Positions 56,525 to 59,532 of a DNA stretch of 64,000 nt are shown one piece after another (the first letter of the stretch is position 1; every line of letters starts with the position of its first letter). Position numbers and translations under genes: made by a program. The stretch covers positions 8,405-72,404 of the forward strand of contig JBPCTY010000147.1 of the NCBI GenBank assembly GCA_051011415.1, given 5' to 3'. Under the pieces are notes generated by a model. The model searched no databases and was not told the DNA's origin. It was given only the letters and a program-made list of their open reading frames with translations. Origin of the DNA: Acidimicrobiia bacterium (lineage in GTDB: Bacteria; Actinomycetota; Acidimicrobiia; Spongiisociales; UBA5794).

Positions 56525-57367
56525 TCAGCCAGCTGATCCGACGGATGCATCACCCTGCCACGCAGGACAGAGTTCTGCCTTGAAGTCGCACCAATCGCAC
56601 AGAGGGGACGTGCGGGCCGGCCAGACATCTGTGTCGATGGCCTTGTCGATCGCACCCCACAGTGCACGGAGCTGCTTGTGCATCGCATCGAGCTGTTGGT
56701 CGTTGATGTCCATCGTGTACTCGGTTGGTCCGTTGAGATAGAGCAATCGAATCCTGTGTGGGGTGATGCCTCGCGTGATCCGAATGAGGAGGGCGTAGAT
56801 CTTGAGGGCAAAGAACGCCTTGTTCGCATACCGCTCGGGCGGTGCCTTGCCCGTCTTGTAGTCGGTGATGACGAGCACTTCTCTGTCGTTGCCATCCGGC
56901 CCCGGCTCAGTGACGGTCTCCATACGGTCGAGGATGCCGCGGATCTTCATGTCGCCGACCTCGACCGTCAGATCCATCTCGAGCTCCATCGGCTCGAACG
57001 CCGTCGGGTCCTCCATCGAGAAATAGGACGCAAGCAGTTGGAGCGAACCGACACCCCACTCGCGTTCTTCTGCCTGCGTTGCAAACAGATCTGGGTACTC
57101 GGTCTGCTTCAGCTCGCTCCAAGCTTCGCGGAACAGATCGAAGAGATGATCGGGTGTCCGGTCGTCTGCGGGGAGCTCGAACAGTCGCTCAAGCGCGAGA
57201 TGTGCGGTGGTCCCCCTGGCCTGATGAACCGTTGGTTCGGTTTCGATCTTGTCGATCGACTTGAATTTGTAGAGCTGTGGGCACGTCTTGAAATCTGATG
57301 CCCTGCTTGGTGAAAGCGATGTCAACGCAGGCGGCTGGAGCGGGACTTCGGAAGCAGTTTCGGTCAT
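56525..57367 (-). CDS. PD-(D/E)XK nuclease, Cas4/AddB-type (RecB-family exonuclease)
   Basis: Start refined to MTETASE. Motifs KTCPQLYKF, GILDRME...VITDYKTGK and CDWCDFKAELC. It ends 3 nt upstream of the adnA start. Confidence 0.75.
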   Translation of the reverse strand: MTETASEVPLQPPALTSLSPSRASDFKTCPQLYKFKSIDKIETEPTVHQARGTTAHLALERLFELPADDRTPDHLFDLFREAWSELKQTEYPDLFATQAEEREWGVGSLQLLASYFSMEDPTAFEPMELEMDLTVEVGDMKIRGILDRMETVTEPGPDGNDREVLVITDYKTGKAPPERYANKAFFALKIYALLIRITRGITPHRIRLLYLNGPTEYTMDINDQQLDAMHKQLRALWGAIDKAIDTDVWPARTSPLCDWCDFKAELCPAWQGDASVGSAG

Positions 57368-57434
57368 GATTGTGACTGTACCGCACGCCCGTGACACGCC
57401 CGCGATACGCAATCCCCATCGCCGAGAGGGGCTT

Positions 57435-57508
57435 CGCGAAAACTCGAAACAAGACGCGAAAAGCAACAAGCGTTGTGGGTTGCATCAGCCCCGGGTGCGG
57501 TTTACCTT
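57435..57508 (+). promoter_or_regulatory. Conserved upstream module and candidate promoter of structured RNA copy 1
   Basis: CGCGAAAACT (57435) and CGCGAAAA (57455) lie 20 bp apart, then AGCGTT (57469), TTGCAT (57480-57485), a 17-nt spacer and TACCTT (57503-57508). Positions 57435-57485 are collinear with 58529-58579. Confidence 0.35.
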
Positions 57509-57918
57509 CTCAGTTGTTCGAAGGGCGAAAGCCTGGAGAGACGGCAGATCCGATCCCTCGGGAAAGGATCACCGGGTAAAACCGGGTCGTGTGGACGGAG
57601 GCAACTCCGGACACCGCCACCAAACGCTTCGGCGGGAGGTGAGGTCTTGAGGAGGAGCCCAGCCTTCGATAGACCACCGGGACGCAGCCGAAAGGCAGCG
57701 ACCCACCCGAAGGGACTTCGGTCCCGAAGGGAGCGTACGCAGGACTTCGGTCAGGCGGGCGCAGATCTGGAAGCGGAACCGGCCTCGGTCGGGATCGGGA
57801 CCAGGTCAGCCGGACGGAGCCGGGAAACTGGCGAGGTCCGGATCGGAGTGAGCTTCGGTTCACTTCATGGAAACCCCGAGAGGGCGAGACTTCGGTTGAG
57901 CTTCCTCGGGGTTTCTGC
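57499..57918 (+). ncRNA. Candidate structured ncRNA, copy 1 (about 420 nt); family not recognised
   Basis: At least 12 hairpins, almost all capped by GAAA, GCAA, UUCG or CUCG loops, with G:U pairs that only work on the + strand and an 11-bp terminal stem. It is paralogous to 58604-58892. No plausible CDS spans it. Confidence 0.5.
57869..57916 (+). terminator. Terminator-like stem-loop closing RNA copy 1; it abuts the stop of the convergent lipoprotein gene
   Basis: GAAACCCCGAG (57870-57880) pairs with CUCGGGGUUUC (57905-57915). An inner UUCG hairpin sits in the loop, and UUUCU follows the stem. Confidence 0.5.
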
Positions 57919-57920
57919 AT

Positions 57921-58508
57921 TCAGCAGTTCGGTACACGCTCGATCAGCTGTACCAGCGCATCATCGTCGGTTGACCAAAGGTTTCCAGCCAGATGCTCAT
58001 CGTGTGATCCGTCGATGGTGTAGGTGGCGAGATCGATGCGTTCGTCGTCTTCGATCGTCAATCGAGACCCGTATGCGTCCTCGAGATCGATCCTGGTCGA
58101 ATCGAGACCGATTCCCTCCTCGGTCCGAAGACCGAGTCTGCGAAAGTCCTCAGCGTTTCCTGTGACGGGATCGAAACCGTACGACCATGTGTGGAACACC
58201 GACTGGACCCCATCGTCGACAAACAGGAGGACGAGGTTGCCCCATGAGACGAGTCGCGTCTCGCCACCCGGGCACTGAGGAACCTGGACCCTTGTGTCCT
58301 CGTCCGCCGAGTCGGCATCCCATCCACCAAGCTGGGAAGAGAGTCCAGATATGACCTCGTCCGCGGCCATGCCGATGCGGAACTCACCGATGCCATTCTC
58401 TGCCAAGACAAGCGAAGGATGGGGATTCGATTGGGATTCGTCCGAACCACTGCAGGACGCCAGAACCAGGGCAGCCACGGTTAGTCCGACGACAACTACG
58501 GAGCGCAT
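57921..58508 (-). CDS. Lipoprotein of unknown function
   Basis: Start refined to MRSVVVVGLTVAALVLASC (lipobox). The mature part is 195 aa and has no recognisable domain. Confidence 0.6.
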   Translation of the reverse strand: MRSVVVVGLTVAALVLASCSGSDESQSNPHPSLVLAENGIGEFRIGMAADEVISGLSSQLGGWDADSADEDTRVQVPQCPGGETRLVSWGNLVLLFVDDGVQSVFHTWSYGFDPVTGNAEDFRRLGLRTEEGIGLDSTRIDLEDAYGSRLTIEDDERIDLATYTIDGSHDEHLAGNLWSTDDDALVQLIERVPNC

Positions 58509-58603
58509 ATCTGCAGCGTACCGGTGACCGCGAAAACTGCCCGCAACTCGCGAAAACGAAGGAGCGTTTTGACTTGCGAAGCAGCACCACATGCCCCAAT
58601 ATT

Positions 58604-58892
58604 GGTTTACCGCAGAAGGGGAAACCCGGAAGCGGGCGTCGAAGGGAAACCGACGGCGGCTGGCGAAAGCCAGCAGGGTCCGGAAACGGATCCAAAACTC
58701 TGGACGGAGACACCCTCGGGTGGAAAGAGGCGAAAGCCAGCCGGACGGCTTAGGTCGGACGGAACGGAAGGAGAGGGAGTGAGCTTCGGCTCATGACCGG
58801 GCTCCGCTTGCGGAGCAGCGAGATCACTGATCGAAAGGTCAGATGGTTCGCAGAGAACCCCAAGGGGGCTCCGGCTTCCTTGGGGTTTCTCG
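58604..58892 (+). ncRNA. Candidate structured ncRNA, copy 2 (about 290 nt), paralogue of 57499-57918
   Basis: Shared sequence blocks: GGTTTACC, TCGAAGGG, GACGGC, TGGACGGAG, CAGCCGGACGG, GGAGTGAGCTTCGG, GGGGTTTCT. Hairpins: GCUGGC-GAAA-GCCAGC, GGGUCCG-GAAA-CGGAUCC, CUGAUC-GAAA-GGUCAG, GCUCCG-CUUG-CGGAGC, UGAGC-UUCG-GCUCA. Confidence 0.5.
58853..58891 (+). terminator. Terminator-like stem-loop closing RNA copy 2
   Basis: AACCCCAAGG (58856-58865) pairs with CCUUGGGGUU (58878-58887), followed by UCU. The stem covaries with the copy-1 terminator (CGAG/CUCG against CAAGG/CCUUG). Confidence 0.5.
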
Positions 58893-58914
58893 CGTCCGGA
58901 GTACCACACCCCGC

Positions 58915-58920
58915 TAATGT
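58915..58920 (+). promoter_or_regulatory. Candidate -10 element (TAATGT) for a leaderless transcript of the PH-SHOCT gene
   Basis: A TANNNT hexamer ends 6 nt before the ATG at 58927, and no Shine-Dalgarno sequence lies between them. Confidence 0.3.
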
Positions 58921-58926
58921 GCTCCT

Positions 58927-59532
58927 ATGGCTTGGCCCGAAGACGCACTCTCACACGACGAACAAATCATCACTTCCTTCCGACCACACTGGAAGCTGCT
59001 GTTCGTCCCGTTCCTCTGGTTCATCGGTTTCCTGATTGCGGGTTCTCTCGTGGCGGTGTACCTCGATTTCGCCCGGTGGGTGGTATTGGCGATCATCGTC
59101 GGGTTCTTTGTCTACTTCGTCGTGCGGCCGCTTGTCGCCTGGGCGACCACTCGCTATGTGCTGACAACCGAACGGCTGATCACCCGCAAAGGCCTGATCG
59201 CAAAATCCGGAATCGAGATTCCACTCGAGCGCATCACAAACGTGAACTTCAGCCAAAGCGTCTTCGAACGAATGCTCGGTGCGGGCGATCTTCTGGTGGA
59301 ATCCGCAGGCACCACGGGGCAGTCGGAGTTCAAGGACATCCCACACCCGGACGAATTCCAGTCGCTCCTCTACAAGGTGAGGGAACAGAGATCGATTGAG
59401 CTCTCTGGCTCGGCGCCGGCCGGCAAGGACCATGCGGGATCGATCAGGGATCTTGCCAAGCTGAGGGACGAAGGTCTGATCTCAGCCGAAGAGTACGAGG
59501 CAAAGCGCCAGGAACTGCTCGACGACATGTAG
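58927..59532 (+). CDS. Membrane protein with a bacterial PH domain (YdbS/YdbT-like bPH_2) and a C-terminal SHOCT domain
   Basis: Two TM helices, then the bPH_2 pattern (YVLTTERLITRKGLIAKSGIEIPLERITNV...GDLLVES). The SHOCT motif is IRDLAKLRDEGLISAEEYEAKRQELL. Confidence 0.75.
   Translation: MAWPEDALSHDEQIITSFRPHWKLLFVPFLWFIGFLIAGSLVAVYLDFARWVVLAIIVGFFVYFVVRPLVAWATTRYVLTTERLITRKGLIAKSGIEIPLERITNVNFSQSVFERMLGAGDLLVESAGTTGQSEFKDIPHPDEFQSLLYKVREQRSIELSGSAPAGKDHAGSIRDLAKLRDEGLISAEEYEAKRQELLDDM

Follow-up and report, generated by a model that had tools for sequence, protein, structure and literature searches.

The 64-kb stretch of Acidimicrobiia DNA analyzed here (hereafter the window) contains a gap at positions 57368–57920, between the PD-(D/E)XK nuclease gene that heads a nuclease-adnA-adnB-like operon and the next open reading frame (ORF). 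What, if anything, does this gap encode? The original prediction, made from the sequence alone, read positions 57436–57920 as a + strand RNA built of tetraloop-capped hairpins. Our analysis makes it highly probable that the gap holds a stand-alone gene for a structured small RNA (sRNA), which we term RNA A. On comparative evidence, RNA A and a second element in the neighboring gap, RNA B, lie side by side and belong to one sRNA family of the Acidimicrobiia that had not been described before. This class is abundant in soils, sediments and sponges, and hardly any of its members have been cultured. Our literature searches yielded no earlier description of the RNA family and no lineage-specific regulatory RNA for the class.

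The predicted structure is confined to one strand. The minimum free energy (MFE) of the + strand across 57436–57920 is −238.3 kcal/mol, compared with −196 ± 6.5 kcal/mol for dinucleotide shuffles (z = −6.56, with none of 100 shuffles as good), whereas that of the − strand is −183.8 kcal/mol (z = −0.88). This difference indicates that the structure is real, strong and strand-specific, and it bears out the earlier choice of the + strand as the functional one. The MFE folds return the same series of hairpins as had been listed by eye, as checked at 57524–57533, 57643–57675, 57819–57832 and 57870–57915. RNA A folds as about a dozen independent local hairpins (11 in the fold used for the Ms1 comparison below), with very little single-stranded sequence. 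The predicted RNA, called from strand-specific folding, 17 homologues and covariation, and its main parts are:

57513–57916, + strand: RNA A, a predicted hairpin-array sRNA of ~404 nt
57516–57541, + strand: hairpin H1, UC-GAA-GGGC-GAAA-GCCU-GGA-GA, a GNRA loop over a 3×3 purine internal loop; helices 1 and 2 covary
57572–57585, + strand: CCGG-loop-CCGG hairpin; the 4 pairs of helix 4 show no variation in 17 sequences
57643–57675, + strand: hairpin H7, with a tandem G·A loop; 6 of 10 pairs in helices 7 and 8 are compensatory
57656–57662, + strand: 7-nt apical loop of H7, AGCCCAG; GGAGCCCAG is invariant in the homologue alignments
57683–57792, + strand: four central tetraloop hairpins (GAAA, UUCG, UUCG, CUCG); 21 of 25 pairs in helices 9–13 are compensatory
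57810–57841, + strand: hairpin H12, CCGGA...GCCGG-GAAA-CUGGC...UCCGG; helices 14 and 15, strongly conserved
57848–57863, + strand: hairpin H13, GUGAGC-UUCG-GUUCAC; in homologues the sequence differs but a hairpin is retained
57870–57915, + strand: terminator-like 3′ hairpin; the apical pairs of helix 16 covary, and 13 of its 18 pairs never vary

The H1 module also opens RNA B and many of the relatives described below. The invariant CCGG stem would fit sequence-specific recognition and is uninformative with regard to structure. The central hairpins are both the most compensatory part of RNA A and the region in which hairpin number varies. H12 is followed by a conserved linker, GGAUCGGAGUG, and the 3′ hairpin comprises 8 bp, an A·C mismatch, 4 bp with tandem G·U, a tandem G·A, 3 bp and a UUCG loop. 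The hairpins of A resemble one another, short internal repeats occur in A, and no tandem repeats were found in either A or B of the window.

To this fold, comparison among relatives adds covariation. We aligned 17 homologues of A, trimmed from predicted start to terminator, most of them 399–411 nt long and two (from loci L004 and L017; L numbers denote loci of related genomes) 450 nt. RNAalifold on this alignment gives 82 pairs, 39 of which show double-sided compensatory changes. The reference structure for the statistics was the majority of the individual MFE folds, with 91 pairs. In it, 92.6% of cells form standard pairs, compared with 32–51% when the 3′ partners are slid by 1–3 columns; 49 of the 91 pairs change on both sides, compared with 11–21 when slid; and the covariation score is 0.368, compared with 0.06–0.09. 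None of 500 column shuffles reaches any of the observed measures. The MAFFT alignments are not structure-aware, and three helices of A therefore remain uncounted; H13, which MAFFT misaligned, was left out of the covariation count. The alignment revealed neither pseudoknots nor covarying pairs over long range. Within the clade, the body of A is kept in length and in every helix. The covariation upholds the view of the element as an RNA.

The ORFs that overlap A had been set aside in the original prediction as low-complexity translations, and they are not conserved. No reading frame stays open across the homologues of A or of B, and alignment gap runs are mostly not multiples of three (186 versus 32 in A, 121 versus 23 in B). 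None of the ORFs overlapping A has a Pfam match. On these grounds, we rejected a protein-coding region.

Upstream of both RNAs lies a conserved set of promoter elements:

57435–57442, + strand: upstream box 1 of A, CGCGAAAA, invariant in all 20 aligned homologues
57455–57462, + strand: upstream box 2 of A, CGCGAAAA, ending 17 nt before the −35 hexamer
57480–57485, + strand: −35-like hexamer of A, TTGCAT; TTGC is nearly invariant in the homologue alignment
57503–57508, + strand: −10-like hexamer of A, TACCTT (TAnnnT), 17 nt past the −35; TA..TT is invariant in the alignment
58529–58602, + strand: promoter of B, with boxes at 58529–58536 and 58549–58556, a −35 element TTGCGA at 58574–58579 and a −10 element CAATAT at 58597–58602

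The paired boxes are direct repeats, 20 nt apart from start to start, at about −55 and −75. CGCGAAAA occurs four times in the 64-kb window, each time in the paired boxes ahead of A and B, and the number of such pairs expected there by chance is 0.00. Over the 133 family promoters collected below, the box consensus is CGCGAAAac-N-CGCGAAAAc.Aa and the −35 consensus is TTGacg; TAnnnT follows at a fixed position, with a spacer of 17 or 18 nt, in 110 of the 133. The boxes thus constitute a candidate new cis-regulatory motif that points to a transcription factor. Because boxes, −35 and −10 are conserved at fixed spacing, the first ~80 nt of the interval originally assigned to the RNA (57436–57512) read as promoter DNA rather than RNA, whereas the remainder, ~57513–57916, holds as RNA. 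The promoter of A (TTGCAT, 17 nt, TACCTT) would be of the sigma-A type, and its spacing places the transcription start probably at ~57512–57516.

The original prediction also stated that all gaps outside this locus are 138 bp or less. This overlooked the neighboring 418-bp gap at 58509–58926, which separates a lipoprotein-like ORF from a bPH_2/SHOCT gene (here bPH2) and holds the second RNA:

58609–58892, + strand: RNA B, a predicted second hairpin-array sRNA of ~282 nt, with a terminator hairpin at 58853–58892 followed by UUUCU

RNA B likewise folds on the + strand (z = −6.18, compared with −2.44 on the − strand) and shares blocks with A upstream and at the 3′ end. Across its 14 homologues, 32 of 81 pairs show double-sided compensation. 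In four relatives the first hairpin of B is duplicated.

To place these two RNAs in a wider context, we fetched 77 loci from species-representative genomes carrying the nuclease protein. Nearly all are Acidimicrobiia metagenome-assembled genomes (MAGs), the best at 77% amino acid identity. BLASTN and nhmmer located both A and B, at 67–75% nucleotide identity, in about 20 of the loci most closely related to ours, with order and orientation unchanged. A thus has covarying homologues at syntenic loci of related Acidimicrobiia, where the original prediction had proposed to look for them. An exact search for the terminator pattern shared by A and B finds it in only 42 stretches of a 185,579-species genome set, nearly all from Acidimicrobiia and one or two per contig, and nowhere in viral contigs; in plasmid and phage collections, nothing matches A. 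A looser terminator pattern gave at least 120 matches in genomes and in metagenomes, and none in viral contigs. The promoter pattern (two boxes and TTG at fixed spacing) gave at least 120 matches, overwhelmingly Acidimicrobiia. Of 204 distinct promoter units, 133 have the conserved 3′ hairpin no more than 700 nt away, and all carriers listed in the scan outputs are MAGs. These distribution counts are lower bounds.

The inferred lengths of the family RNAs cluster at ~143 nt (35 units), 260–310 nt (B-like) and 395–402 nt (A-like), within a range of ~46 to ~650 nt. The ~143-nt class is well conserved: its promoter reads TTGACG, 17–18 nt and TAcgTT, its three hairpins include an invariant GGGGGCCCGCUUUCCC segment, and UUUCUCGCGUC comes after the 3′ hairpin. 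Each locus carries one to three RNA genes in tandem; the complete chromosomes L167 and L173 have one tandem pair each. Most first units lie 60–130 nt from the nuclease gene and are divergent from it, so that the family's first RNA gene usually sits back-to-back with the main double-strand-break resection operon, and the last unit lies directly upstream of bPH2. The family is not strictly single-locus, since several MAGs carry a related ~145-nt RNA at a second locus, divergent from a 96-aa ORF that has no match in Pfam, the only database searched with it. This RNA has the variant boxes GTCGCGAAGAAG...GTCGCGAAAT and the family 3′ hairpin:

6860–7140 of L369, and likewise in L356, L361, L363, L366, L383, L388 and L394: second-locus RNA

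The family appears to be built from one kind of module. In 132 family RNAs, GNRA- or UNCG-type tetraloops cap 868 of 1189 predicted hairpins (73%), compared with 4% in dinucleotide shuffles; the commonest are UUCG (314), GCAA (183), GAAA (151), GAGA (79) and CUCG (59). A symmetric all-purine internal loop lies directly below the apical stem in 41% of hairpins, compared with 17% in shuffles, most often GA/GA and then GAA/GGA. The typical module therefore consists of a lower stem, a symmetric purine (tandem G·A) internal loop, a short G-C stem and a GNRA or UUCG tetraloop. The 3′ hairpin that ends more than 130 related RNAs is itself one such module. Promoter, first hairpin type and 3′ hairpin are fixed, and the body between them is an array of variable length.

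Module number changes by duplication. Among the A homologues, L004, L017 and L007 have 1 to 4 units more than RNA A in the central region. In L004 and L017 there is one extra unit, the extra copy occupying alignment columns 280–330. At L007:178–352, TRF finds 4.1 tandem copies of a 43-nt unit made of a hairpin and its linker. At the other extreme, the unit at L173:4088–4213 consists of a promoter followed by a terminator-type hairpin only, with an RNA of ~46 nt, and may be a decayed copy or else the smallest functional unit. The resulting natural series of 1 to more than 12 modules would suit the study of how valency evolves in decoy-type RNAs.

We then considered whether A and B are genes in their own right or parts of neighboring transcripts. 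The features that bear on this are:

57365–57367, − strand: ATG of the PD-(D/E)XK nuclease gene, which heads the nuclease-adnA-adnB-like operon (assigned by Pfam)
57375–57397, − strand: nuclease promoter, GTGTCACGG-N8-TACAGT, then 7 nt to the ATG
57368–57920: gap with RNA A, between the nuclease gene and the next ORF
57921–58592, − strand: ORF beyond RNA A, 223 aa, with its stop at 57921
58509–58926: gap with RNA B, 418 bp, from the lipoprotein-like ORF to the bPH2 gene, which starts at 58927

The nuclease promoter has the layout TGTCAC, 11–12 nt, TAnnnT and 6–7 nt to the ATG, on the − strand, in 37 of 44 loci. An 11-nt direct repeat in the window, CACGCCCG(T/C)GA at 57384–57410, is part of it. 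Because TAnnnT lies only 6–7 nt before the ATG, the nuclease-adnAB transcript appears leaderless. Likewise, every locus inspected has a TAnnnT element 6–7 nt ahead of the bPH2 ATG, at a variable distance (~25–110 nt) from the terminator of B; in the window this is TAATGT, 6 nt before the ATG at 58927 (58915–58929), and the gene looks leaderless as well. What lies downstream of A varies between genomes, being either a convergent ORF or the promoter of B. Since the neighbors have promoters of their own and the downstream context of A varies, we read A and B as stand-alone genes rather than as leaders or 3′ untranslated regions. The original prediction that the transcript is independent, and not a leader of adnAB, agrees with the conserved −35, −10 and boxes of A and with the separate, apparently leaderless nuclease promoter.

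The gene order adnB-adnA-nuclease, A, (ORF), B, bPH2-SHOCT, TrmA-like methyltransferase, SDR is widely conserved. The intervening ORF is lipoprotein-like, and its true start is probably Met 58508 and not 58592, because a lipobox-like LASC motif follows that Met in the translation. The 3′ hairpin of A adjoins the stop codon of this ORF (57921–58508). No Pfam or NCBIfam match was found for 57921–58592. The ORF lies between A and B in many relatives and is missing in L006, L014 and L015; in L006 and L015, A and B are directly adjacent and still keep their transcription signals. RNA B always lies directly upstream of bPH2 on the same strand. Neither B nor the second-locus RNAs adjoin the repair operon.

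Does the family belong to a known class? Rfam 15 (4227 models, including RNase P, tmRNA, SRP, 6S, 6C, riboswitches, raiA, OLE, ROOL, GOLLD, HEARO and STAXI), applied to the whole window at the gathering threshold, returned only two tRNAs. In E-value mode, 57300–58000 gave four chance-level matches, the best at E = 0.3, and 12 related loci gave none. There was thus no significant match at A, in line with the original prediction that no known family is present. With covariation-supported stand-alone genes, and with a fixed promoter and 3′ hairpin around an expandable array, these RNAs are candidates for a new Rfam family. CGAGAGG and CGGAGUG look similar to the 23S sarcin-ricin region, a likeness that we judged coincidental because these bases are paired in a stem and no rRNA model matches. 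A type III toxin-antitoxin RNA array was also rejected: A and B contain no tandem repeats, and the downstream gene encodes a bPH_2/SHOCT membrane-type protein.

The closest likeness in design is to CsrB/CsrC and RsmX/Y/Z. Those sRNAs are likewise transcribed from genes of their own, in which an upstream activator site is conserved at about −60 to −80 and transcription ends at an intrinsic terminator; their bodies repeat a hairpin module in varying number and span ~100 to several hundred nt. They also share with our family paralogues, tandem copies and evolution by module duplication. In contrast, the (A)GGA hairpin-loop motif is not among the frequent loops here, where GNRA or UUCG takes its place; the repeated feature is instead a purine internal loop in the stem; no CsrA-type partner was detected; and there is no sequence or Rfam relationship. 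As the defining GGA loops are absent, we regard this as a resemblance of design and not as membership.

Ms1 and 6S RNA offer a second comparison. Like the present RNAs, Ms1 is a highly structured actinobacterial RNA that has a stand-alone gene, measures a few hundred nt and is transcribed from a promoter under strong conservation. In Actinobacteria, 6S is generally missing and Ms1 is used instead (PMC9130861). The conserved synteny of Ms1 involves a HAD-IB hydrolase / 'inhibition of morphological differentiation' gene and an oxidoreductase (PMC9130861). This synteny is missing at A and B, which are flanked by the PD-(D/E)XK nuclease-adnAB operon, the lipoprotein-like ORF and bPH2-SHOCT, and Streptomyces coelicolor Ms1 gave no match at E ≤ 10 to nhmmer profiles built from A, from B or from the short class. 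Ms1 forms a rod that is irregular in its central domain and carries 4 hairpin loops, whereas A folds as 11 local hairpins, with 5′ and 3′ ends unpaired with each other and a self-contained hairpin at the 3′ end. Membership in 6S/Ms1 was rejected because sequence, fold and synteny are all unlike.

With the raiA motif, OLE, ROOL, GOLLD, HEARO and STAXI, the family shares a lineage-restricted, covariation-supported, non-coding and tetraloop-rich character. STAXI is a repeat of structured units near DNA-handling genes. The covariance models of these classes have no match, and they have a fixed conserved core where the present family has a variable array.

Given its activator-type site, terminator, paralogous and tandem genes, repeated-module body and invariant elements, our best, still tentative guess for the function of RNA A is that of a protein decoy or scaffold. 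We hypothesize that it would act in trans as a very stable, abundant and multivalent protein-binding RNA, following the logic of CsrB/Rsm or of 6S/Ms1. Hairpin copy number would set its valency. Candidate protein sites are the internal purine loops and the invariant hairpin at the 3′ end, and sequence-specific contacts could come from that hairpin as well as from the AGCCCAG loop and the CCGG hairpin. A factor binding the CGCGAAAA boxes would set expression, possibly within a DNA-damage or stress program. Taken as a single claim, a stand-alone sRNA gene that works as a decoy or scaffold is about evenly balanced, a grading that is itself a compromise.

Several observations weigh against the gene, the mechanism or both. 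A terminator-like stem is present as originally described, but its U-tract is short (UUUCU) and it fails a generic terminator scan. Indeed, a generic E. coli-type sigma-70 and terminator scan made no call at either RNA. The assignment of promoters and terminators to both genes therefore draws solely on comparative conservation, and the start and 3′ end of A are predicted positions. The G·A internal loops and long-range pairs of A come from MFE predictions, and RNAalifold left some helices of A unresolved. A metagenome scan for RNA-sized contigs returned at least 120 matches, all of them ordinary contigs of ≥1.2 kb, and no transcript evidence. For the mechanism, GNRA and UUCG tetraloops are usually structural caps and not protein sites, so that taking the G·A loops as the repeated protein-binding motif is a reading and not a result. 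The promoter-plus-hairpin unit of L173 fits a many-module decoy poorly. Finally, the neighboring genes include no conserved RNA-binding candidate, and no partner protein was identified.

We also asked how far the setting links the decoy or scaffold RNA to DNA damage. The layout of the nuclease promoter matches the RecA-NDp/PafBC promoter type, whose consensus Gamulin et al. reportedly gave in 2004 as tTGTCRgtg-N8-TAnnnT. In mycobacteria, adnA was reported as exclusively PafBC-dependent (PMC8682763). The boxes of RNA A lie roughly equidistant from the two divergent start sites, those of A and of the nuclease. Paired CGCGAAAA boxes also precede a gene for a 267-aa protein on the − strand at L135:2121–2924 and L200:3425–4228, and the promoter of this gene has a LexA-type SOS box, CGAACgtgtGTTCG (CGAAC-N4-GTTCG), between −35 and −10; Pfam and NCBIfam gave no functional clue to the protein. 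The same boxes ahead of a LexA-box gene suggest that damage-inducible genes, too, are among the targets of the factor that binds the boxes.

Together, the back-to-back PafBC-type layout, the equidistant boxes and the boxes before the LexA-box gene suggest a structured RNA linked to a PafBC-type DNA-damage regulon, which we offer as a hypothesis. The tie is doubtful, as it amounts to guilt by association, and the RNA promoters themselves lack both the TGTC element and a LexA box. It is improbable that the hairpin-array RNAs form an RNA arm of the actinobacterial DNA-damage response that tunes double-strand-break resection on and off. In such an arm, a dedicated box-binding regulator would drive the RNAs divergently from the PafBC-type nuclease-adnAB promoter, and their target, as decoys or allosteric ligands, would be a component that senses nucleic acids, for example AdnAB itself, the Cas4-like nuclease or a WYL-domain regulator of the PafBC kind.

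Among the alternatives to a decoy or scaffold, the strongest, although unlikely, is an sRNA that base-pairs in trans with mRNAs. The conserved loops (AGCCCAG in A, GGCCCGCUUU in the ~143-nt relatives) would then be seeds and the hairpin array would serve stability only, comparable to the C-rich loops of actinobacterial 6C RNA. This would account for invariant loops amid covarying stems, and a promoter and terminator of its own is what classic sRNAs have. Yet A exposes very little single-stranded RNA, the conserved loops differ among A, B and the short class, leaving no common seed, and a body of 400–650 nt far exceeds what a seed carrier needs.

Slightly less likely again is a strong promoter-terminator cassette that works at the level of DNA beside the repair operon, by coupling divergent promoters through supercoiling, by insulating, or by titrating RNA polymerase or a transcription factor, with the RNA selected only for inert hairpins that avoid R-loops and for clean termination. 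Promoter and terminator are indeed conserved while bodies vary from ~45 to 650 nt, down to the promoter and terminator hairpin of L173, and the back-to-back layout with the nuclease promoter is fixed. Inertness, however, requires neither sequence-invariant loops nor an invariant CCGG hairpin, body length and every helix are conserved within the clade, and B and the second-locus RNAs lie away from the repair operon.

Two further proposals carry equally low probability. An RNA-polymerase-binding regulator, as a functional analogue of 6S or Ms1, would be in keeping with a stand-alone, probably abundant, structured RNA of 140–400 nt with a highly conserved promoter, in sequences where our searches detected no 6S family; against it stand the lack of a match to the Rfam 6S models, the unpaired ends, and the differences from Ms1 in sequence, architecture and synteny. 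A self-assembling architectural RNA, in which GNRA loops and helical receptors would produce a compact fold or a homo-oligomer as in ROOL, GOLLD and raiA-type RNAs, could explain the extreme density of GNRA tetraloops and tandem G·A motifs and the conserved helix lengths. It is countered by the lack of an Rfam match to those classes and of detectable long-range covarying pairs or pseudoknots, and the free variation of hairpin number between relatives does not fit a fixed three-dimensional architecture.

A cis-regulatory role, whether as a leader or attenuator of the downstream gene, as the 3′ untranslated region or terminator of the convergent lipoprotein gene, or as a − strand leader of nuclease-adnAB, is very improbable. 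The constant position of B upstream of bPH2-SHOCT on the same strand, and the way the 3′ hairpin of A abuts the stop codon of the 57921–58508 ORF, could be taken in its favor. A − strand leader of adnAB was rejected because the − strand is not significantly structured (z = −0.88) and the nuclease gene has its own promoter and appears leaderless, and a leader of bPH2 because that gene has its own −10 element 6–7 nt before the ATG and an apparently leaderless start; both of these −10 elements are conserved, at a variable distance from the RNA. A riboswitch or attenuator leader was likewise rejected, as the downstream context of A varies and the invariant terminator hairpin has no competing conserved helix and shows no alternative pairing. 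The weakest proposal, a small protein gene or a remnant of repeats or mobile elements resembling repetitive extragenic palindromes (REP) or miniature inverted-repeat transposable elements (MITE), could draw on the long ORFs that overlap A in GC-rich DNA and on the similar hairpins with short internal repeats, but it has next to no probability and its dispersed-repeat and mobile-element or phage forms were rejected, given that no frame is open across homologues, the overlapping ORFs lack Pfam matches, the RNAs occupy one or two fixed syntenic loci per genome without viral, plasmid or phage matches, and the window element has no tandem repeats.

Two minor observations lie outside the RNA family. 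In five non-Acidimicrobiia Actinomycetes MAGs (L119, L139, L154, L195 and L215), the promoter pattern hit a strongly conserved intergenic block of another kind, ...GGTTTGACGGATGGCAC.CGTGTAATTACACTCGTGAAACCGTGCTAGATGTAG...CCCCAACATCTAGTGGGTGTG.ATAGAT.TGTGGATA..., which lies ~100–250 nt downstream of the pattern match. This block contains palindromes and TGTGGATA-type boxes and is unrelated to the RNAs described here.

The window also holds another gap of more than 138 bp between ORFs of at least 150 aa, at 1899–2335, which reads like small-protein coding sequence. A weak terminator-pattern match at 2036–2049 was considered as a third element and rejected, since the site reads as coding sequence. 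The 1899–2335 stretch is followed by tRNA-Gln (2336–2408) and tRNA-Glu (2429–2504), the only genes returned by a tRNA/tmRNA scan of the window, both far from RNA A.

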